Below, one piece after another: positions 22,772-51,520 of a stretch of DNA of 59,923 bases. How positions within the stretch are numbered: position 1 is the stretch's first letter; every line of letters starts with the position of its first letter. The DNA is taken from positions 1 through 59,923 of the forward strand of contig CAZRAC010000003.1 in NCBI GenBank assembly GCA_964597995.1. Direction: 5' to 3'. Both the position numbers and the translations under genes were made by a program. The notes beneath the pieces were generated by a model, which worked only from the letters and a program-made list of their open reading frames with translations, was not told the origin of the DNA and ran no database searches. Origin of the DNA: an uncultured Syntrophaceae bacterium (GTDB lineage Bacteria; Desulfobacterota; Syntrophia; Syntrophales; UBA4778).

Positions 22772-22800
22772 AAAAAAGGCCGGAGAACCCGGCCTTTTTT
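22772..22800. terminator. Bidirectional terminator ending the atpE-Cache gene transcript
   Basis: AAAAAAGGCCGG-AGAAC-CCGGCCTTTTTT. Confidence 0.8.
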
Positions 22801-22812
22801 GTATGCTCAGAT

Positions 22813-22840
22813 GAAATCAATCACCTGAAATCAATCACCT
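22813..22840. repeat. Perfect 14-bp direct tandem repeat x2
   Basis: GAAATCAATCACCT GAAATCAATCACCT, abutting the stop codon of the Cache gene. Confidence 0.85.
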
Positions 22841-24158
22841 ACTTGTTGTCTTCTTCTTCATCTTCGTAATAGTCAACCACTTCCTGCGAACCTTCCGGCA
22901 CCTCGGCTGCGATGGACCGAGAAATTCCTCGAGCCAGTAAAGCGGAGATCAGGAAAAGAATGACCACAGATATGATCAGGATCAGGATGATCGTTGTCGA
23001 CCACGCCTTCGCTTCTTTTTCGATCTTCTGCGACGTTGCGACGGCAAGTTCGTTCCACTTTTCTACGTCGACACCCATCCCGACCCAACCAAAACCGCCC
23101 GGTTTAGGATAGTCGTCGGTGAAGAACTTGATCGGTGCATAGGCGACGAACTTCGTATGGCCACCGAATTTGTATGTCTTGATGCCGGAGTTTCCGGCGG
23201 CTGCGTCCTTCGCTATCTCAGGTAGGTTCGGGTCCATGAAGCCGAGAAGATTGAGGTTCAGGACTTCCTCTCCCTTTTTGACCTGCTCTTCGGCTGTCTT
23301 CTCCGTCAGAGGAGGAACCGGTCTCCCGTCTTTGTACAGGCCCGCGATATGGTAGTCGTTTGGGTGCGAGATCATGAACCCCTTGTTGTCGACCATATAG
23401 GCATAATTACCTGTGGAAGCGTCGGCCTCAAAAACAAGTTGTGCCTGTGTCGGGATGATATGATCGGTGAAGCCGGCGAGGTGCCTGTAATCAAGAGCCA
23501 GAACGACCACTCCGGCGAAACCTTCTTTGCTGAACAACGGGGTTGCAAAGCGGATAACCCCCGTGAATCTTTTATTTTGTTGCTCGAACTCCTGTCTATT
23601 GACGTACCATCCGGTGACACGGCCGACGTATATATCGCCCTTGTTCAGAGCCTTCGCCTTGTTGAAGTAGTCTTCCGACTTGTAAAGGGTGTTGGCCGGA
23701 TTGCTCACATTGACCAATTTTGACTTCGGCACAACCTGGCCGTTTGATATCTTGATCTGTTCATTGCCGTTTCTGTCAATGAGCGCCATCTCCGTGTAGA
23801 GGAGAGCAGGTTCCTGGACGATTTTGTCGTTCGACTTCACCCAGATATTTCTTTTGTTTTCATTGACGAACTGTTTGAACGCCGCCTCGGTGGCTGGGAT
23901 GATGGTGGCCACCAGCAGGTCCTTTTTTCTCTCACTGAGGAAGCTGGCGACCTCATCTGCTGTATTGATGGTCCGTATTTTTATTTCTTCCTGAGATTTT
24001 TGATCGAGAACGGTGACGGCACGTTCTTTTGCTGTAATCCCAAGTTTGAATATTCCATTGGCGATAAGAATCGCCATCAACGATAAGGGGATTACTATAA
24101 GCAGGAAGAAGACCCTTGCTACAGTGAAAAGCTGCTTGTCTTTTTTTGTGTCTGGCAT
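22839..24158 (-). CDS. Membrane-anchored Cache-domain sensor protein with no cytoplasmic output domain
   Basis: TM at ~13-35, a ~350-aa extracytoplasmic region (IRFATPLF..GVVVLALD, YAYMVDNKGFMISHP, FVAYAPI), second TM at ~390-410, then only a ~30-aa acidic tail. Confidence 0.8.
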   Translation of the reverse strand: MPDTKKDKQLFTVARVFFLLIVIPLSLMAILIANGIFKLGITAKERAVTVLDQKSQEEIKIRTINTADEVASFLSERKKDLLVATIIPATEAAFKQFVNENKRNIWVKSNDKIVQEPALLYTEMALIDRNGNEQIKISNGQVVPKSKLVNVSNPANTLYKSEDYFNKAKALNKGDIYVGRVTGWYVNRQEFEQQNKRFTGVIRFATPLFSKEGFAGVVVLALDYRHLAGFTDHIIPTQAQLVFEADASTGNYAYMVDNKGFMISHPNDYHIAGLYKDGRPVPPLTEKTAEEQVKKGEEVLNLNLLGFMDPNLPEIAKDAAAGNSGIKTYKFGGHTKFVAYAPIKFFTDDYPKPGGFGWVGMGVDVEKWNELAVATSQKIEKEAKAWSTTIILILIISVVILFLISALLARGISRSIAAEVPEGSQEVVDYYEDEEEDNK

Positions 24159-24210
24159 CGCCTTCTCCCCCTAACTTTGTTAGTTTTGAATTAATCGTTC
24201 GACCGTTAAA

Positions 24211-24585
24211 TTAACCCAAAAAATAACGCATATAGGGGTTTGCGTAGAGGAGAACGAGCGAAACGACCAGGGCGTAAATGGTAATCGATTCCGCCATTGC
24301 CATACCCACGAGCATCGTTGTCAAGATCTTACCCTGGACGCCGGGGTTTCTTCCGACAGCCTGGCATGCGCCGCTTGCGGCATTTCCGATTCCTGCACCG
24401 GCGCCGATTGCACCGCCACCAATCGCTATACCTGCAGCTATCATCGCACCTACAGCGAAGATCACCTTCGTGTAAGGTTCACCCGTCGGAAGGGCTTCCG
24501 CCGCGAATACTACCGGTGAACACACAAACAGAGTTACCACGGCTGAGAAAAGGGTTAGTAAAGTCTTTCCGAATTTCTTTAACAT
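24211..24585 (-). CDS. atpE: F-type ATP synthase subunit c, paralog 1, with a signal-peptide-like N-terminal extension
   Basis: GAIGAGAGIG glycine motif, GRNPG loop, MAESITIY (ion-binding Glu), LYANP; AAGGAG RBS. Confidence 0.95.
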   Translation of the reverse strand: MLKKFGKTLLTLFSAVVTLFVCSPVVFAAEALPTGEPYTKVIFAVGAMIAAGIAIGGGAIGAGAGIGNAASGACQAVGRNPGVQGKILTTMLVGMAMAESITIYALVVSLVLLYANPYMRYFLG

Positions 24586-24695
24586 CTGTCCAATCTCCTT
24601 TCATGGGGTAAAGTAACCTGAATGACCAACCTTTTCCTTGTAACATAATTCTGTATCCAAAGAAAAGGAAAAGCTCTTCAGTTGCCCGCCCTATA

Positions 24696-24711
24696 TGCAA
24701 TGAATGTGCCT
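24696..24711 (-). promoter_or_regulatory. sigma54 (-24/-12) promoter driving atpE paralog 1
   Basis: Minus strand reads AGGCAC-ATTCA-TTGCA with exact GG-N10-GC spacing, ~110 nt upstream of the ATG. Confidence 0.75.
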
Positions 24712-25052: not shown

Positions 25053-25232
25053 ATGCAGGAAATATTGACCGCTGTAACATACCTTGTGGCCTGGTTAGCA
25101 TGCGAAAAAGTTTTTCACATCGAAAGCGGCCTCACCAAACTTCTCATCTCTCTTGGTGCCGCCGTTGGCGTCTATGTCCTGATAGCTGTGAAGGAAAGCC
25201 GCGAGAAGACACGGAAGGGACGAGACGATTGA
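25053..25232 (+). CDS. Small (59 aa) membrane protein with two hydrophobic segments
   Basis: GGAG RBS upstream; two hydrophobic stretches and a charged tail; stop 7 nt before the kinase start. Confidence 0.65.
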   Translation: MQEILTAVTYLVAWLACEKVFHIESGLTKLLISLGAAVGVYVLIAVKESREKTRKGRDD

Positions 25233-25239
25233 GCGGTGC

Positions 25240-27831
25240 ATGACTCCATCTATGGAAAATAAAAGAATAATTCCTATATGGTTGGCGACCGTCATCGTCA
25301 TCTTGATGGTAATCCTTTTTTCCATGCTCATAAATCGTGCGCGGGAAAAGGAAATCGTCGAGCGGTTCAGCCGTCAGCAAATGGCCATAGCCAAGGGGTT
25401 GGCCGCGGGGATCGAAGACCTTATCGCCGACGTGGGAAAAAGTATGATGATCCATTCCCTGCGGCTGACCAGCGGGCGGAAGGCGATCGTCTCCTTAAGA
25501 GAAGATGTCAGGGTAATCTTTGACAGCTTAGGTGCCAAGGTGAAGTTCGTCGCGGCAGACGGCGCAGACGGTAGCCCTATTGTCTATCCCTCTGACTACC
25601 GGCAGGCCTTTTTGACTAAGAGGCCTGAGATGCAGGCACTGATGAGAGAGGTGAAAAGGACTGGGAAGCCCCATGTCGGCGATTTTCTAAGAAAAGAAGG
25701 AAATGTCGGTGCTGAAAGAATCGGCGAGGACGAAACACTGGTAGTGGTCGCGGTTCCGCGGTTTGGTCAAGACAGGGAGGTTATCGGCGCCTTTTATGCC
25801 GCCCTATCTCTTTCCACCGTCGTCGACAGGTATATTTTGCCGGCGAAAGATGAATTTTCTTGCGAGGTCTGGCTGGTAGACGAAAAGGGGATGATCGCCT
25901 TCCATACCAACGGGCATCTGGCGGGTCGAGAGGCGGATGTACTTGAGACGGAGCAGCCGTCAGGAGGTCTCTCCCTGAAGAGTAGGATGATGGCCGGGGG
26001 CGAAGGCATAGGTGAGTATCGGTTGCTTCGGGGAAAAGGCCGCGAGGAAAGGCAGATCGTCGCCTTTTCGCCGGTCGGGCTCGACTCGAGAAAGTGGTCG
26101 GTGGCAGTCAGTCTCCCGTACCAGGCAGCGGTATCCCACTTGAAAAAAACGTTCGTCATCTTGATGCTGGAGGCCCTTGTTCTGATCGTTACAGCCGTCG
26201 TTGGGGCTGCGATGATTTTCTATACCAGCAGGCGGCGCCTTGTCTTGGAACAGGAGTTGAAGCGGTTCAAAGAACGGGATGATTTGCAGGAGAAGCTTGC
26301 CAGAGAGAAACGCACTATGGAGGGGATCATTGAGGGTTCTCCTATACCCACTTTTGTCATCGACCGGGACCACAAGGTCATTTTCTGGAACCGGGCCTGT
26401 GAGGAGTTGACGGGGTGCCGGAGCGTGGAAATGATAGGGACGGACAAGCAGTATATGCCCTTTTATCCCGAGAAGCGGCCGGTGATCGCCGATTTGATCG
26501 TAGATAATGACTTTGAGGGCCTGGATAAGTATTACGGGAAGAAGCAGGTTCAGAAGTCGTCGGTGGTGGAGAAGGCATACGAGGCGAGAGATTTTTATGA
26601 GAATCTGGGCGGTCGCAGGCGGCACCTTTATTTTCTCGCGGCGCCCATCTATGATGAGAACGGCCAGATAATCGCGGCGATCGAGACACTCCAGGATGTG
26701 ACCCGAGAGAGGGAGATGGAGTTAGCCCTGAAGGAATACGCCGAGACACTGAAGAACGAACTCTACGAGAACATTAAGCTAAAAAAGGACATAGAGGAGC
26801 TTTACAACTATCTTCAGTTCATCCTGGAAAGTTCCCCGGACCGGATATTCGACGTGACGAGCGATGGAACGATCAATTTCGTCAGCCGCAGCCTAGACTC
26901 CGGCACAGGAGCAAAGCAACTTCAAGGGAGGCATTTTACGGAGTTTGTGGCGCCCGAGCACAAAGAGTTCCTCATGAAAAGGTGGGAAGAGATCAAAGGA
27001 GGTCAATACCATCCTTTCGAGATAGAGGCGACAGCGAGAGACGGGACGAAACGAAACCTGTTGATCACCCCAAGGCCTATCAAGGGAACGGACCGTTATC
27101 TGTTCGTCCAGCGGGATATCACTGAATTCAAGGACCTGGAGAAGAAATTTTACGACAGCCAGAAACTCGCGGCGGTGGGACAACTCTCGGCAGGCATCGC
27201 CCACGAGGTGAGGAACCCGCTTTCGTCGATCAAAATGAGCCTTCAGATCCTGCAAAAGCGACTTCGCCCGGAAGGCAATGACCTAAAGAGGTTCAAGATT
27301 GCCGAGAAAGAAGTGGAGCATCTGGAAAAGATCGTCAGTGACATACTGCTCTTCGCTAAACCCATGGAACCGGACATGAGGCCGGGAGACGTCAACTCCT
27401 TCATCGACAGTTCTTTGTTGATGGCGGAGAAAGAGATATTGGAAAAGAAGATCGAGGTCCGCGCCGATTACGACAGCGATATCCCGCAGGCAAACTACGA
27501 CCCCGGGATGCTCAGGCAGGCGCTCCTGAACCTCTACCTAAACGCCATAGATGCGATGGATGAAGGAGGAGTACTAACCATCTCGACACGTTTTGTCAGG
27601 AAAGGTGATGGTGAATGGGTGCTGATAGAGATCGAGGACAACGGGTCCGGTATCGACGAAGAGGACATCCCCCACCTCTTTAACCCGTTTTTCACTCGGA
27701 AGAAGTATGGGACCGGGTTGGGATTGGCACAGGTAAAGAAAATCATCGACCTCCATCGGGGTACAATAGAAATCGTCAGCGTGAAGGGCCGGGGGACGAA
27801 GGTGTCTGTTGCGCTACCGGCAGGCGGGTAA
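25240..27831 (+). CDS. Sensor histidine kinase (TM-Cache-TM-PAS-PAS-HisKA-HATPase)
   Basis: H box AGIAHEVRNPLSSI, N box NLYLNAIDAM, G boxes EDNGSGI and GTGLGL; two PAS-like segments. Confidence 0.95.
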   Translation: MTPSMENKRIIPIWLATVIVILMVILFSMLINRAREKEIVERFSRQQMAIAKGLAAGIEDLIADVGKSMMIHSLRLTSGRKAIVSLREDVRVIFDSLGAKVKFVAADGADGSPIVYPSDYRQAFLTKRPEMQALMREVKRTGKPHVGDFLRKEGNVGAERIGEDETLVVVAVPRFGQDREVIGAFYAALSLSTVVDRYILPAKDEFSCEVWLVDEKGMIAFHTNGHLAGREADVLETEQPSGGLSLKSRMMAGGEGIGEYRLLRGKGREERQIVAFSPVGLDSRKWSVAVSLPYQAAVSHLKKTFVILMLEALVLIVTAVVGAAMIFYTSRRRLVLEQELKRFKERDDLQEKLAREKRTMEGIIEGSPIPTFVIDRDHKVIFWNRACEELTGCRSVEMIGTDKQYMPFYPEKRPVIADLIVDNDFEGLDKYYGKKQVQKSSVVEKAYEARDFYENLGGRRRHLYFLAAPIYDENGQIIAAIETLQDVTREREMELALKEYAETLKNELYENIKLKKDIEELYNYLQFILESSPDRIFDVTSDGTINFVSRSLDSGTGAKQLQGRHFTEFVAPEHKEFLMKRWEEIKGGQYHPFEIEATARDGTKRNLLITPRPIKGTDRYLFVQRDITEFKDLEKKFYDSQKLAAVGQLSAGIAHEVRNPLSSIKMSLQILQKRLRPEGNDLKRFKIAEKEVEHLEKIVSDILLFAKPMEPDMRPGDVNSFIDSSLLMAEKEILEKKIEVRADYDSDIPQANYDPGMLRQALLNLYLNAIDAMDEGGVLTISTRFVRKGDGEWVLIEIEDNGSGIDEEDIPHLFNPFFTRKKYGTGLGLAQVKKIIDLHRGTIEIVSVKGRGTKVSVALPAGG

Positions 27832-27977: not shown

Positions 27978-29348
27978 ATGGCCAAGATCATTGTGATTGA
28001 CGATGACAGGTCGATCAGTGAATCCCTCGAGTTGTATCTCTCGGAGGAGGGGCATGAGGTAATGACGGCCAATACAGGAACGGACGGCCTAAACTTGGTC
28101 CTCCAGACGTCGCCGGACATCGTCATCCTGGACATCCGACTGCCCGACATCGACGGGTTTACCGTCCTTGAAGACCTGAAAGAGGAGAACGTGGATGCCA
28201 AGGTGATAATGATAACCGCCCACCACGACATGGAGACCACGATCAAGGCCATGAAGGAAGGGGCCTTTGACTACATCCATAAACCCATAAACATAGATGA
28301 ATTGGACATCGCTATCCAGAAGGCCATCAATACGTTGGAGATGGAGAAGAAGATCAACGGCCTTCTCACGGAACCATCCCGGAGCTTCAAGGTCGGCGAC
28401 ATAATCGGCACCGGGAAGGCCATGCTGGATATCTTCAAAGTAATCGGCGTGGTCACCCAGAGCAAGACCACCGTCCTTATCCAGGGCGAGAGTGGAACCG
28501 GCAAGGAACTGATCGCCAAGGTGATCCACAACAATACTTCTCCCACCGAGCCTTATATCGCCATAAATTGCTCGGCCATCGTAGACACCTTGCTCGAGTC
28601 GGAACTCTTCGGGCATGAGAAGGGGTCTTTCACGGGGGCCATCAACCGGAAGCCGGGGAAGTTCGAACTTGCCCGCCATGGCACCGTCTTTCTGGATGAG
28701 ATCAGTGAGATGTCCCTGAACCTCCAGGCAAAACTCCTCAGGGTTCTCCAGGAGATGGAATTCGAGCGGGTGGGCGGGAAAGACCGCGTCAAGGTGAACG
28801 CAAGGATAATCGCCGCCACGAATAAGGACCTGAAGACCCTGGTCGAGGAAGGTAAGTTCAGGGACGACCTGTATTATCGCCTCAACATCGTCACGATCAA
28901 CATCCCTCCCCTCAGGGAGAGGAGGGAGGACATCCCCTTGCTCGTCGATTATCTGCTGAAGAAGATAAACCGGGATCTCCACAAGAACATCGTCGGCGTT
29001 TCGAAAGAAATGATGGACGTCTTCATGAAATACGGTTGGCCCGGTAACGTCCGTGAACTCGAGAATATCCTTGTACGTGCGGCCGTCGTCGCCAAAGGGC
29101 AGGTGCTCGGGCGCGAGGATTTCCCCGATTTGCTGGGTAGCGCGCAGGTACCGAAGGCACCGGCGGCGCTTGCCGGGGAAGAAGAGGAAGGGACCGGTTT
29201 TGAGACCCTTGACGAGATAGAGGAACGTCATATCCGCAGAGTCATCGCCAAGGTGGGCAGGAACAAAGGTGAAATCTGTGAGATCCTGGGTATATCACGC
29301 CCTACCCTCGAAAGAAAACTTGAGAAATACGGTATCCGTTTCGATTGA
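27978..29348 (+). CDS. NtrC-family sigma54-dependent response regulator (REC-AAA+-HTH)
   Basis: LDIRLPD receiver, QGESGTGKE Walker A, ESELFGHEKGSFTGA, FLDEISE, WPGNVRELEN, LGISRPTLERKL HTH. Confidence 0.96.
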   Translation: MAKIIVIDDDRSISESLELYLSEEGHEVMTANTGTDGLNLVLQTSPDIVILDIRLPDIDGFTVLEDLKEENVDAKVIMITAHHDMETTIKAMKEGAFDYIHKPINIDELDIAIQKAINTLEMEKKINGLLTEPSRSFKVGDIIGTGKAMLDIFKVIGVVTQSKTTVLIQGESGTGKELIAKVIHNNTSPTEPYIAINCSAIVDTLLESELFGHEKGSFTGAINRKPGKFELARHGTVFLDEISEMSLNLQAKLLRVLQEMEFERVGGKDRVKVNARIIAATNKDLKTLVEEGKFRDDLYYRLNIVTINIPPLRERREDIPLLVDYLLKKINRDLHKNIVGVSKEMMDVFMKYGWPGNVRELENILVRAAVVAKGQVLGREDFPDLLGSAQVPKAPAALAGEEEEGTGFETLDEIEERHIRRVIAKVGRNKGEICEILGISRPTLERKLEKYGIRFD

Positions 29349-44163: not shown

Positions 44164-44817
44164 CTAATGAGCCCCCTCCATCGCGCCGGCGATGTACATC
44201 ATCGAGAGGAGAGCGAAGACCAATGTCTGGATGATTGCGATGAAGACCTTCAGGGCCAGGATCGGCAACGGCACCAGGAAAGGAACCAGGATGAAGAGCA
44301 CGGCGAGGACTATGTGCCCGCCCTGGATGTTTCCGAATAGTCGCACCGAAAGCGATAGCGGCCTGGTAAGGTGGCTTATGATTTCGATAGGCAGCATCAA
44401 CGGGGTGAGCCACCAGACCGGCCCCAGGAACTGCTTGATGTATTTGAAGCCGTGGATTTTGATGCCCACGATGTGGGTCATGAAGAACACGCAAAGGGCC
44501 ATGGACACCGTCGTGTTGAGGTTCGATGTGGGCGACTCAAACCCTGGTATGAGACCGATGAGGTTCGATGTCAAGATGAAGATGGCGAGCGTTGCGATCA
44601 AGGGGAAATAAGCCTTTCCATGGGGACCCATAGTCTCGATTAGCAGGTTTTCTATGGCGCCCACGACAACTTCCATGATGTTCTGTATTTTGTTGGGGTA
44701 AATGTCCATCCGGCGGGTTGCGGCGACAGAAAGGAGAGCCAATAATATCATAGTCAACCACGTGTACGTCACGTGGGCCGGAAAGGGGATCCACTCAAGG
44801 TACAGGAAAGAATGCAT
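44164..44817 (-). CDS. atpB: F-type ATP synthase subunit a
   Basis: [35 protein letters not shown] (essential Arg), [13 protein letters not shown]. Confidence 0.95.
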
Positions 44818-44822
44818 CTTTG

Positions 44823-45224
44823 TTACTTAACCTCCCTGGTTTTTAGTATGTTATACTTCGACGCTTCGACGACAGCCGACACGATGATGTTCATGACGAC
44901 GACTGACAGGCCTACGAGAAGGCCGATCACATCGGCCGGTGTACCGGTGATGACAAAATACAGTACAACCCCCGTCACAGCGAAGCGGATGTAATATCGG
45001 ACCATGAGGGCTGTCTTGGCCTTGTTAGTCAGGTTTTGGAAGACCTTTCTTAAGCTTAAATAGAGCCAGTAAAAGTTTATGATGCTGATCAACCCGCCCA
45101 ACAGGACCCCGAGAGTGAAATTCAAGGGCATAAAAACGAGACTCAGCGTAAGCAACACCCCAAGTCCTATCCAGTTCCTCACTTCAAGCTTTTTTTGGAG
45201 AGGGTCTTTTACGGTGGGGTTCAC
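44823..45224 (-). CDS. atpI: ATP synthase protein I
   Basis: Four TM segments, [15 protein letters not shown]; directly upstream of atpB. Confidence 0.85.
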
Positions 45225-45471
45225 TCTTTATCCGCCTTTGAATCTCCTCCCCCTCATTGGGGAAGTTGCGCTTGACCATGGTATAGACATTCCTGAGCCC
45301 CGCGATGATCCCGACGAGGAAAAACAAGAGGGTCAGCTTATGTCCCGTGCCCAGCTTCCGGTCCAGCCAAGAACCGAGCAGAAGACCTCCGAAGACTGCA
45401 AGAACCATCGCAAAACCCACGCTACTGGCGTAGGTCAGCTGGATCATGAAGTTCTTTGTGTCTTTGTCCAT
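45184..45471 (-). CDS. atpZ: AtpZ/AtpI-family small membrane protein
   Basis: VGFAMVLAVFGGLLLGSWLDRKLGT..LFFLVGIIAGLRN signature. Confidence 0.85.
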   Translation of the reverse strand: MDKDTKNFMIQLTYASSVGFAMVLAVFGGLLLGSWLDRKLGTGHKLTLLFFLVGIIAGLRNVYTMVKRNFPNEGEEIQRRIKSEPHRKRPSPKKA

Positions 45472-45507
45472 GAGCGGGCGCCTTGTAACATACGTGACCG
45501 ATAAAGT

Positions 45508-45537
45508 CAACGATAAAACGGACAACGGGTTATGGGG
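45508..45537. repeat. Degenerate 7-bp-periodic intergenic repeat
   Basis: CAACGAT AAAACGG ACAACGG GTTATGG; shares CAACGGGTT and TTATGGGG with 27842-27899. Confidence 0.45.
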
Positions 45538-45604
45538 GTATAAGGCCAAAAACGCGGAGCCGGAAGCTACAGCAGACCCGTAAGACGGCTTAAAACGTGG
45601 ACGA

Positions 45605-51027: not shown

Positions 51028-51142
51028 CTCCCCTTGAGTAGGAGAAAGAGTGTAGAAGGGGGGTGAAGGAGAGCGGGATAAAAAGCAGGAATAAAAAGCG
51101 GCAATGGCATTTCAGTCGAACTTAAACGAAAGGATGGTAAAA

Positions 51143-51520
51143 ATGAGGAAAGTAAGGATACTTGCAGCTTCTCTTTTGAGTCTCTTCGGAGTGCTCGTGT
51201 TTGCGACTTTTGCGATGGCAGCACAGGGAGCGGCGGCCACCGAGGGAAGCATCAACTACACCAAGGCAATCGTCGTGGGATGCTCTCTCATCGCCGCCGG
51301 ACTCTCGATTGGGTTGGGTGCTAACGGAACCGGCCACGGCATGGGGCAGGCGACAAGCGGCAGTGCAAGCGCCGTGGGAAGAAACCCGGAGGCACAGGGA
51401 AAGATCCTGCTGACCATGATGGTCGGTCTCGCGATGGCGGAATCGGTCGCGATTTACGCGCTCGTCGTTTCTCTCATCATTCTTTACGCCAACCCGTTGT
51501 TGAAGGTAATCGCCGGTTAA
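51143..51520 (+). CDS. atpE: F-type ATP synthase subunit c, paralog 2, with a signal-peptide-like N-terminal extension
   Basis: GANGTGHGMG motif, GRNPEA loop, MAESVAIY, LYANP; AAAGGA 8 nt before ATG 51143. Confidence 0.95.
   Translation: MRKVRILAASLLSLFGVLVFATFAMAAQGAAATEGSINYTKAIVVGCSLIAAGLSIGLGANGTGHGMGQATSGSASAVGRNPEAQGKILLTMMVGLAMAESVAIYALVVSLIILYANPLLKVIAG

Follow-up and report, generated by a model that had tools for sequence, protein, structure and literature searches.

An output-less double-Cache protein encoded directly behind a solitary ATP synthase c-subunit gene in an uncultured Syntrophaceae bacterium and its relatives

In the DNA of an uncultured Syntrophaceae bacterium (contig CAZRAC010000003.1 of assembly GCA_964597995.1, positions 1 to 59,923; the whole stretch of 59,923 nucleotides (nt) is referred to as the window), the gene for a 439-residue membrane receptor of the Cache type, CacheA, lies directly behind c1, the gene for a solitary paralog of the ATP synthase c subunit (Table 1). 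The c1 stop codon occupies positions 24211-24213 and the ATG start codon of CacheA begins at 24158, with GGGGGAGAAGG just upstream of the start. No terminator-like site was found in the gap between the two genes, and folding of the spacer RNA is no stronger than in shuffled controls (z -1.17). An intrinsic terminator follows the Cache gene, so that the initial annotation, which had placed the gene 52 nt behind atpE with no terminator between the two and one after it, was right in each respect. Two tandem copies of GGTGATTGATTTCA stand between the Cache stop codon and the terminator (window 22810-22837, minus strand), and ppsA comes next on that strand, beyond the terminator. Divergent to c1 and CacheA are genes for a 59-residue protein with two transmembrane (TM) helices, a histidine kinase and a sigma54-dependent response regulator. 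The adjacency of c1 and CacheA recurs across the order and again, in paralogous form, outside it, and it is the arrangement considered here.

Table 1. Features of the locus and of the other ATP synthase genes in the window.
Feature	Position in window	Strand	Basis
sigma54-type -24/-12 promoter element, GGCAC-N5-TTGC, upstream of c1	24697..24710	(-)	
c1, solitary ATP synthase c-subunit paralog, 124 aa	24211..24585	(-)	PF00137, 63.7 bits
c1-Cache spacer, 52 nt, holding a strong Cache ribosome-binding site	24159..24210	(-)	
CacheA, output-less Cache protein, 439 aa	22839..24158	(-)	open reading frame (ORF), Pfam, ortholog frames, AlphaFold2 model, Foldseek
TM1, ~residues 13-37	24048..24122	(-)	hydrophobic stretch in N-terminal helix
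Periplasmic double-Cache (dCache) domain, ~residues 38-385	23004..24047	(-)	AlphaFold2 model and Foldseek
TM2, ~residues 386-409	22932..23003	(-)	hydrophobic stretch in C-terminal helix 365-419
Cytoplasmic juxtamembrane segment and acidic C-terminal tail, residues 410-439	22842..22931	(-)	
Intrinsic terminator past the Cache gene	22772..22800	(-)	GC-rich hairpin, 13-bp stem (6 GC pairs), then T-run
59-aa two-TM protein, 7 nt upstream of the kinase	25053..25232	(+)	
dCache-PAS-PAS-HisKA-HATPase histidine kinase	25240..27831	(+)	Pfam
NtrC/AtoC-type sigma54-dependent response regulator	27978..29348	(+)	Receiver, Sigma54_activat and HTH_8 domains
atpZ-atpI-atpB cluster, no atpE behind	44164..45549	(-)	Pfam ATPase_gene1, ATP-synt_I, ATP-synt_A
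c2, second solitary c-subunit gene, 138 aa, presumed housekeeping copy	51104..51520	(+)	

The architecture first ascribed to the protein, a TM-Cache-TM receptor with an acidic tail and no HAMP, kinase or methyl-accepting chemotaxis protein (MCP) domain, is borne out by Pfam and by an AlphaFold2 model. Only dCache_1 and HK_sensor_dom_bact match the 439 residues in Pfam, with no match to HAMP, HisKA, HATPase, MCPsignal or GGDEF. The dCache_1 match (PF02743; E 4.6e-10, 39.9 bits) stays under the 45-bit gathering cut-off, and PF02743 is listed for the protein in the database's precomputed annotation. The AlphaFold2 model (72 homologs; pLDDT 90.4, pTM 0.83) runs from a TM/stalk helix (residues 5-84) through a pair of alpha/beta modules to a C-terminal helix (residues 365-419) that contains TM2, the last 11 residues being disordered. 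Its best matches in the PDB by Foldseek are all dCache domains (3LID, 2P7J, Mlp24, TlpC, PctA and CtaA), the top ones with E from 2e-11 (3LID, 2P7J and Mlp24 at ~1e-11 to 1e-10) and a probability of 1.00, and a language-model search returned Cache/PDC clusters only. This fold evidence outweighs the sub-threshold Pfam score, and by the model CacheA is a genuine dCache receptor without an output domain, its Cache domain predicted to be extracytoplasmic between the two TM helices.

Directly past TM2 runs a conserved LLARGI(S/T)RSI motif. In homologs HAMP begins at this very point, where CacheA has none: the conserved HAMP proline is replaced (LLARGISRSI), and the D/E-rich tail ends the chain ~25 residues on. 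The CXXCH motif is absent from the protein. A PDB profile search with the homolog alignment was dominated by the kinase columns of the long homologs and gave nothing on the ligand pocket. As there is no transmitter domain, the protein could act only via its TM helices, the juxtamembrane segment, the acidic tail or periplasmic binding.

A survey of 121 genomes, evenly sampled from the window's order, found orthologs of CacheA in 82, representing 41 of the 59 genera and 19 families. All are open frames of ~420-490 residues, 55-98% identical to the window's protein, with no longer form among them. Mean pairwise identity over 32 orthologs is 0.86 in TM1, 0.64 in the periplasmic domain and 0.62 in TM2, which makes TM1 the best-conserved segment of the protein, nearly invariant; the D/E-rich C-terminus is kept in 32/32 although the sequence of the tail drifts. 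A HMMER search of a protein library gave 468 relatives. When the best ten of these were checked by Pfam, eight proved to be longer, with a TM-Cache-TM module (33-40% identity) ahead of HAMP or PAS; four of the eight have histidine-kinase domains, one is an MCP and one has GAF.

Relatives that bear HAMP, kinase or MCP modules raise the question of whether CacheA is what remains of a sensor kinase after truncation or decay. That explanation is refuted for practical purposes, both by the 82 orthologs of the same length, which lack a C-terminal output domain throughout and so leave the output-less reading of the initial annotation standing, and by the state of the protein itself. CacheA retains 29/29 positions that are at least 90% conserved in the 72-homolog alignment, kinase- and MCP-linked homologs included, and the sensor is thus under the same constraint as its signalling relatives. 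The conserved residues include several His, Asp and Glu. The confident model and the cover of the gene by RNA-library contigs also speak against a remnant. In one single-contig genome (G016:C1:584601-586322) the Cache ortholog has 7 in-frame stops and c1 has one, the mark either of a decaying cassette or of an error-rich long-read assembly.

Of the 82 genomes, 74 have a c1-type gene directly upstream of the Cache ortholog in the same orientation (gap 39-82 nt, median ~54 nt), a linkage far beyond chance. The eight exceptions all involve a match that lies at the end of its contig or falls on a short contig in a fragmented assembly. The order also outlasts rearrangement: where the kinase operon lies elsewhere in the genome (G033, G031), the Cache gene remains behind c1. 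The link to atpE proposed in the initial annotation is upheld by these counts, as is the link to the divergent kinase operon, found in 18 of 20 larger loci examined. In genome G030, of genus g27, two CacheA paralogs, 58% and 66% identical to the window's protein, flank ppsA (G030:C50:1-6329); one contig ends in c1 and another begins with the Cache gene, the assembly break falling exactly between c1 and the first CacheA copy.

Co-transcription of c1 and CacheA, likewise proposed at the outset, is supported by contigs from RNA libraries of two runs of one activated-sludge study, which span the junction (X1 record 5, 23494-24282; X2 record 16, 23836-24672; 98-99% identity), DNA carry-over being possible in such contigs. 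At ~24667-24672, which is 25-30 nt downstream of the -12 element, the contigs stop in adapter sequence, and none extends further upstream. Such 5' ends are compatible with a sigma54 start and give a weak hint of one, contigs being unable to prove a start. RNA cover is absent over ppsA, the divergent promoter and parts of the Cache gene, but these are low-cover contigs and the gaps are not interpretable; contig ends near 22836-22843 in two studies are a possible hint of the 3' end, too thin to use.

A second, paralogous pair occurs outside the order. In f67, a family from another order of the same phylum, the complete cassette A (59-residue protein, kinase, regulator, c1 and CacheA) is present in three genomes (G166, G236, G327) and in fragments in a fourth (G458). 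Six f67 genomes carry a cassette B, in which a different solitary c-subunit paralog, cB, is followed by CacheB; the two are adjacent in 6/6 and on one metagenome contig, and three genomes hold both pairs. CacheB, also output-less, has 431-437 residues, is ~41% identical to CacheA and begins ~130-230 nt behind cB. Common to both proteins are the TM1 motif FFxLIVxPL....I..G..K.G, LLARG past TM2 and an acidic C-terminus, short and weaker in CacheB. The setting of cassette B is its own: it has a sigma70-like promoter with the sigma54 element absent, no two-component system was found near it, and rnfA-B-C lie behind it in 4 of 6 genera. Genomes with cassette B only are without the 59-residue protein. 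The sigma70-like promoter upstream of cB, conserved as TTGCAT ... TATAAA, is followed in the cB leader by a perfect palindrome, ATTCAGA-N7-TCTGAAT, which is likely to be an operator or an RNA element.

In f67 the c subunit within the canonical atpZ-I-B-E operon has no Cache neighbour; only solitary c paralogs do. The one constant partner of the output-less Cache proteins in both paralogous lineages is the solitary c gene directly upstream, as this alone is kept across two lineages that differ in regulation and neighbours, and the pairing appears to have been maintained through at least one ancient duplication. Several f67 genomes also have a second F-type operon (G166:C41:116000-123000; G435:C47, G504:C137, G458:C296) with a fused multi-hairpin c subunit of 326-494 residues and 4-6 or more hairpins, together with an 85-residue c subunit bearing a Na+-type ESTGIYS motif, an operon that we take to be reminiscent of the Acetobacterium woodii enzyme.

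The behaviour of the two pairs bears on the suggestion that the Cache protein is an independent receptor, with its partner elsewhere or with none (a ligand buffer or scaffold), and is co-transcribed with c1 only because the two are called for under a shared condition. No known transmitter module ties the protein to a partner, and c1 can function without it. Against this, co-regulation alone seldom keeps adjacency and order in two pairs that are 41% identical, and the two pairs differ in promoters and neighbours. This explanation is regarded as improbable.

The identity of c1 itself constrains what such a partner could do. The genome has two c genes only, a single atpB and a single F1 alpha/beta pair, and the gene next downstream of atpZ-atpI-atpB encodes something other than a c subunit. 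The genes c1 and c2 each stand alone; their products share 61% identity over the 87 residues of the hairpin, and each has a signal-peptide-like N-terminus. The PF00137 match of c1 is far over the cut-off of 24 bits, and the protein has the hallmarks of a rotor subunit: the R-N-P loop (F1 docking), the helix-2 Glu and the GxGxGxG packing motif. An AES..Y motif and a GRNPGVQGK loop are conserved across 36 c1 orthologs. In a c-subunit tree the c1 orthologs form their own clade apart from c2, with a support of 99 in the SH-like approximate likelihood-ratio test (SH-aLRT), and the cB clade has 97; the tree does not resolve the deeper branches. Across the order the c subunits fall into two clearly distinct types, and genomes without a Cache gene mostly carry the c2 type only. 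Given one atpB, one F1 set and two c genes, c1 must serve the sole ATP synthase, provided that it acts as a rotor subunit.

Two further observations concern c2. In the window it lies ~6 kb from atpZ-atpI-atpB, next to hemL and an ORF of 157 residues that, judging by its sequence, is probably AhbA/B-like (heme biosynthesis). In genus g13 (G037, G122) a c2-type gene stands convergent just downstream of the Cache gene, replacing ppsA, so that both c isoforms and the Cache gene are in one cluster.

Expression of c1 and CacheA appears to be under sigma54 control. The window has two matches to the element GGCAC-N5-TTGC where 0.43 would be expected, one of them at 24710..24697. In nearly all of ~20 orthologous loci, Cache-less loci included, TGGCA[CT]-N5-TTGCA precedes the c1 start by 83-129 nt. 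The genome has rpoN (PF04552 match on contig C8), and the adjacent regulator matches Sigma54_activat with 224.7 bits; most likely, then, this NtrC-type regulator activates the c1-Cache promoter. Regulator orthologs are kept in all genomes tested, the Cache-less ones among them, and c1 with the regulator is the core of the system across lineages. In the Syntrophus-like family f21 (7 genomes) c1 and its promoter stand directly before ppsA, with no Cache, kinase or 59-residue protein; G085 and G098 have the regulator gene divergent to c1, with no adjoining kinase, no 59-residue protein and no Cache gene. In one f21 genome (G079, C1:2394000-2407000) an orphan ortholog of the regulator sits ~800 bp away from atpB, so that its proximity to ATP synthase genes is maintained where the kinase and Cache genes are missing.

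The existence of these c1-only lineages also bears on the idea that c1 and the Cache protein form a joint sensor, in which the buried Glu of c1 would respond to pH or proton-motive force and the Cache domain to a periplasmic ligand, the two together feeding the kinase or another partner. Several features fit such a device: solitary c paralogs are strictly paired with Cache-only proteins, the same genomes have a housekeeping c without a Cache partner, and the neighbours are energy-related, ppsA in cassette A and rnfABC in cassette B (4/6 genera). It is nonetheless thought very improbable, as c1 retains every rotor hallmark, beginning with PF00137, and in f21 occurs alone, with neither Cache nor adjoining kinase. 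We know of no precedent for it.

The two-component system beside the pair is variable at its input end. Among the kinases of 18 loci, 12 have a weakly conserved Cache domain and six have none; these six start with PAS repeats no more than ~100 residues in and have no periplasmic or TM part. The closest NCBIfam family to the window's kinase is AtoS-like, under its cut-off. Descent of CacheA and the kinase's own Cache domain from one another as paralogs was considered and rejected, there being no significant similarity between them. The 59-residue protein is directly upstream of the kinase in every kinase-bearing locus examined, with 44-97% identity, and matches no Pfam or NCBIfam family. Its distribution follows that of CacheA closely, both being present in 80 of the 121 genomes and neither in 36. 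The five exceptions are two genomes with only the Cache protein, both fragmented assemblies (G008, G054), and three with only the 59-residue protein, one of which has it at a contig end (G018) and two of which, from genus g31, are without c1 and Cache (G036, G070). In one genome (G071:C150:15038-15211) the 59-residue protein and the kinase share one open frame of 958 residues. This arrangement hints that the 59-residue protein is a detached membrane module of the kinase.

This distribution supports a different role, in which the Cache protein would be a third part of the two-component system, a periplasmic co-sensor in trans or a feedback modulator, with c1 merely the regulated output. Acting on the kinase, it would do so via the 59-residue protein or via the kinase's own TM helices. 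Besides the near-perfect co-occurrence of CacheA and the 59-residue protein, lineages that keep c1 and the regulator but have lost the Cache protein are also without the 59-residue protein and a regulator-adjoining kinase; about six of 18 kinases have no periplasmic or TM part, a gap that a separate sensor would fill; and the frame shared in G071 joins the 59-residue protein to the kinase. At 33-40% identity, homologous sensor modules serve as the inputs of kinases, MCPs and HAMP-GAF proteins. Closer still, a module 57% identical to that of CacheA, TM1 motif included, is fused to PAS-GAF-PAS-HisKA-HATPase in family f2, where three genera have it. The fused kinase is not adjacent to c1, the same genomes keep a separate c1, and in the three better-assembled f2 genomes CacheA is directly behind c1. 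Such a natural fusion shows that the CacheA module is able to drive a kinase across the membrane. A metagenome scan with the fused relative P0122 gave no match, and a second one, with P0123, gave matches from the same species only. A Cache protein without an output domain that signals to an operon partner has a precedent in the CHH receptor (bioRxiv 10.64898/2026.05.25.727664).

Other observations do not sit well with a co-sensor. CacheB pairs have no two-component system nearby, and cassette-B-only genomes lack the 59-residue protein; at no locus examined did the Cache gene lie within the kinase operon, and it stays with c1 when that operon is elsewhere; the protein has neither HAMP nor another known transmitter; and the window's kinase already has a Cache domain of its own, unrelated to CacheA. 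On balance the co-sensor or modulator, the main rival of the explanation favoured below, is judged possible but rather unlikely. Of the two mechanisms offered in the initial annotation, feedback on the Cache kinase is helped by the co-occurrence with the 59-residue protein and was worded too specifically, about a third of the loci having a kinase without Cache or TM segments. Direct coupling of ligand sensing to Fo draws on a link to the c subunit that is more general than the link to the kinase, since it is kept in the second paralogous pair, which has no kinase; the data are undecided between the two. A mixed model, in which the Cache protein contacts c1 and also reports to the kinase, is possible.

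The explanation favoured here, to which a probability of roughly 0.4 is assigned, has the Cache protein bind a ligand and act in the membrane as a partner of the extra c subunit or of Fo. A dCache receptor would have lost HAMP and its output domains in an ancestor and kept its two TM helices and an acidic tail. Made together with c1 from the sigma54 promoter, it would contact c1 via the membrane or the tail, either as unassembled subunits or in a c1-containing Fo ring, and ligand binding in the periplasm would then modulate the assembly or operation of the c1 ring. It might aid or gate ring assembly, act as a brake released by the ligand, or ride with the ring. The contact and its role are inferred from gene order and sequence. 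What points to them is that the order c-then-Cache is invariant in both paralogous pairs; that it persists where the kinase operon has moved and in cassette B, without any kinase; that in f67 the c of the canonical operon has no Cache partner and only solitary c paralogs are paired; that TM1 is the most conserved segment in a protein with no output domain to which a signal could be transmitted; and that there are two c genes for one ATP synthase, with RNA contigs spanning c1 and Cache.

Several points weigh against a partnership with c1 or Fo. Since c1 and its sigma54 promoter persist without the Cache gene in f21 (7 genomes), G085 and G098, c1 does not strictly need the Cache protein. The co-distribution of CacheA with the 59-residue protein fits a signalling role at least as well. 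The conservation of TM1 need not reflect binding to c1, given that the motif is kept in the f2 kinase fusion away from c1, and this weakens an argument drawn from sequence. A protein bound outside the rotating ring would collide with the stator, for which reason a specific geometry (inside the ring, as a brake, or in assembly only) must be assumed. Nor does c1 offer an obvious specialization: a changed ion or ring size relative to c2 was considered and set aside, the sequence differences being too modest. Neither c subunit has a clear Na+ signature, both having ES..Y without the extra Thr of ESTxxY, the Na+ motif of c subunits (PMC2881411); the F-type enzyme of S. aciditrophicus is given as H+-specific in the same paper on the N-ATPase (PMC2881411). 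The boldest form of the partnership, in which the Cache protein would itself regulate a bacterial F-type rotor or belong to it as an accessory subunit, with its TM helices against or inside the c1 ring and the ligand changing assembly, stoichiometry or rotation, is held to be doubtful.

Either role would matter for the physiology of these bacteria. Syntrophic degraders of fatty and aromatic acids live on tiny free-energy differences, and the locus gives a concrete, conserved five-gene module for how syntrophs adjust the ion/ATP ratio and reverse electron transport. If the Cache protein is a partner of the rotor, it would be a ligand-responsive 'gear or brake' on the ATP synthase, set atop the control of the c isoform by sigma54 and the two-component system. 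If it is a signalling protein, the locus would encode a natural split sensor, consisting of a Cache receptor, a 59-residue membrane connector and a soluble PAS kinase, and the Cache receptor would transmit without any known transmitter domain. Full-text literature searches gave no description of a Cache protein linked to atpE and none, for these bacteria, of a c-subunit isoform controlled by sigma54; a ligand-sensing protein dedicated to an F-type rotor subunit is not known to us, and the same searches returned none. A rotor partner, if confirmed, would make the system categorically new.

Comparison with known systems places the protein between receptors and accessory subunits. The dCache_1 sensors (vpHK1S-Z8, 3LID; Mlp24, 6IOP; PctA, 5T7M) have the same fold, with a long stalk helix and two PAS-like modules between the TM helices, whereas CacheA ends ~30 residues past TM2 with no HAMP or output, and its periplasmic part is larger (~350 residues versus ~230-280 in solved dCache domains). 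The CHH (Cache_heme-HAMP) receptor signals to an operon-encoded, physically associated Ser/Thr kinase (bioRxiv 10.64898/2026.05.25.727664). Like CacheA it is a Cache receptor without intrinsic enzymatic output, acting via a partner from the same operon; unlike CacheA, which has neither HAMP nor CXXCH and whose constant partner is a c subunit, it docks via HAMP and binds heme/nitric oxide. CpxP (for CpxA) and MgrB (for PhoQ) are target-encoded feedback modulators of sensor kinases, and CacheA resembles them in that its gene lies in the presumed target operon, divergent from the kinase and regulator, and its product is in the envelope. They differ in being small, in not being ligand-binding Cache receptors and in not being tied to a structural gene such as atpE.

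On the side of the rotor, ATP6AP1 and ATP6AP2 are counted as part of the V-ATPase rotor/c-ring assembly (bioRxiv 10.1101/2024.04.01.587493). ATP6AP1/Ac45, ATP6AP2/PRR and yeast Voa1 share with CacheA a large extracytoplasmic domain and few TM helices, but they are eukaryotic V-type components with unrelated folds. A Cache protein that rode with the c1 ring would resemble ATP6AP1 and ATP6AP2. Proteins of the ATP6AP1/ATP6AP2 type are positioned inside the ring; to our knowledge the bacterial F-type enzyme has no such rotor accessory subunit. AtpI/UncI and AtpZ, small membrane proteins whose genes accompany those of Fo, are linked to assembly of the c ring. Both lack an extracytoplasmic domain and a ligand-binding fold, and in the window they sit with atpB, not with c1. 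The alpha2-delta subunits of voltage-gated calcium channels, from which Cache takes its name, offer a likeness by analogy only: they too are output-less Cache proteins, extracytoplasmic auxiliaries of an ion-translocating complex, but they are eukaryotic, contain a VWA domain and are anchored by glycosylphosphatidylinositol or a single TM segment. The pairing of an output-less Cache protein with a solitary c subunit in most of an order of syntrophic bacteria hints at a mechanism, not described before, that either senses on behalf of the cell's energy machinery or acts upon it.

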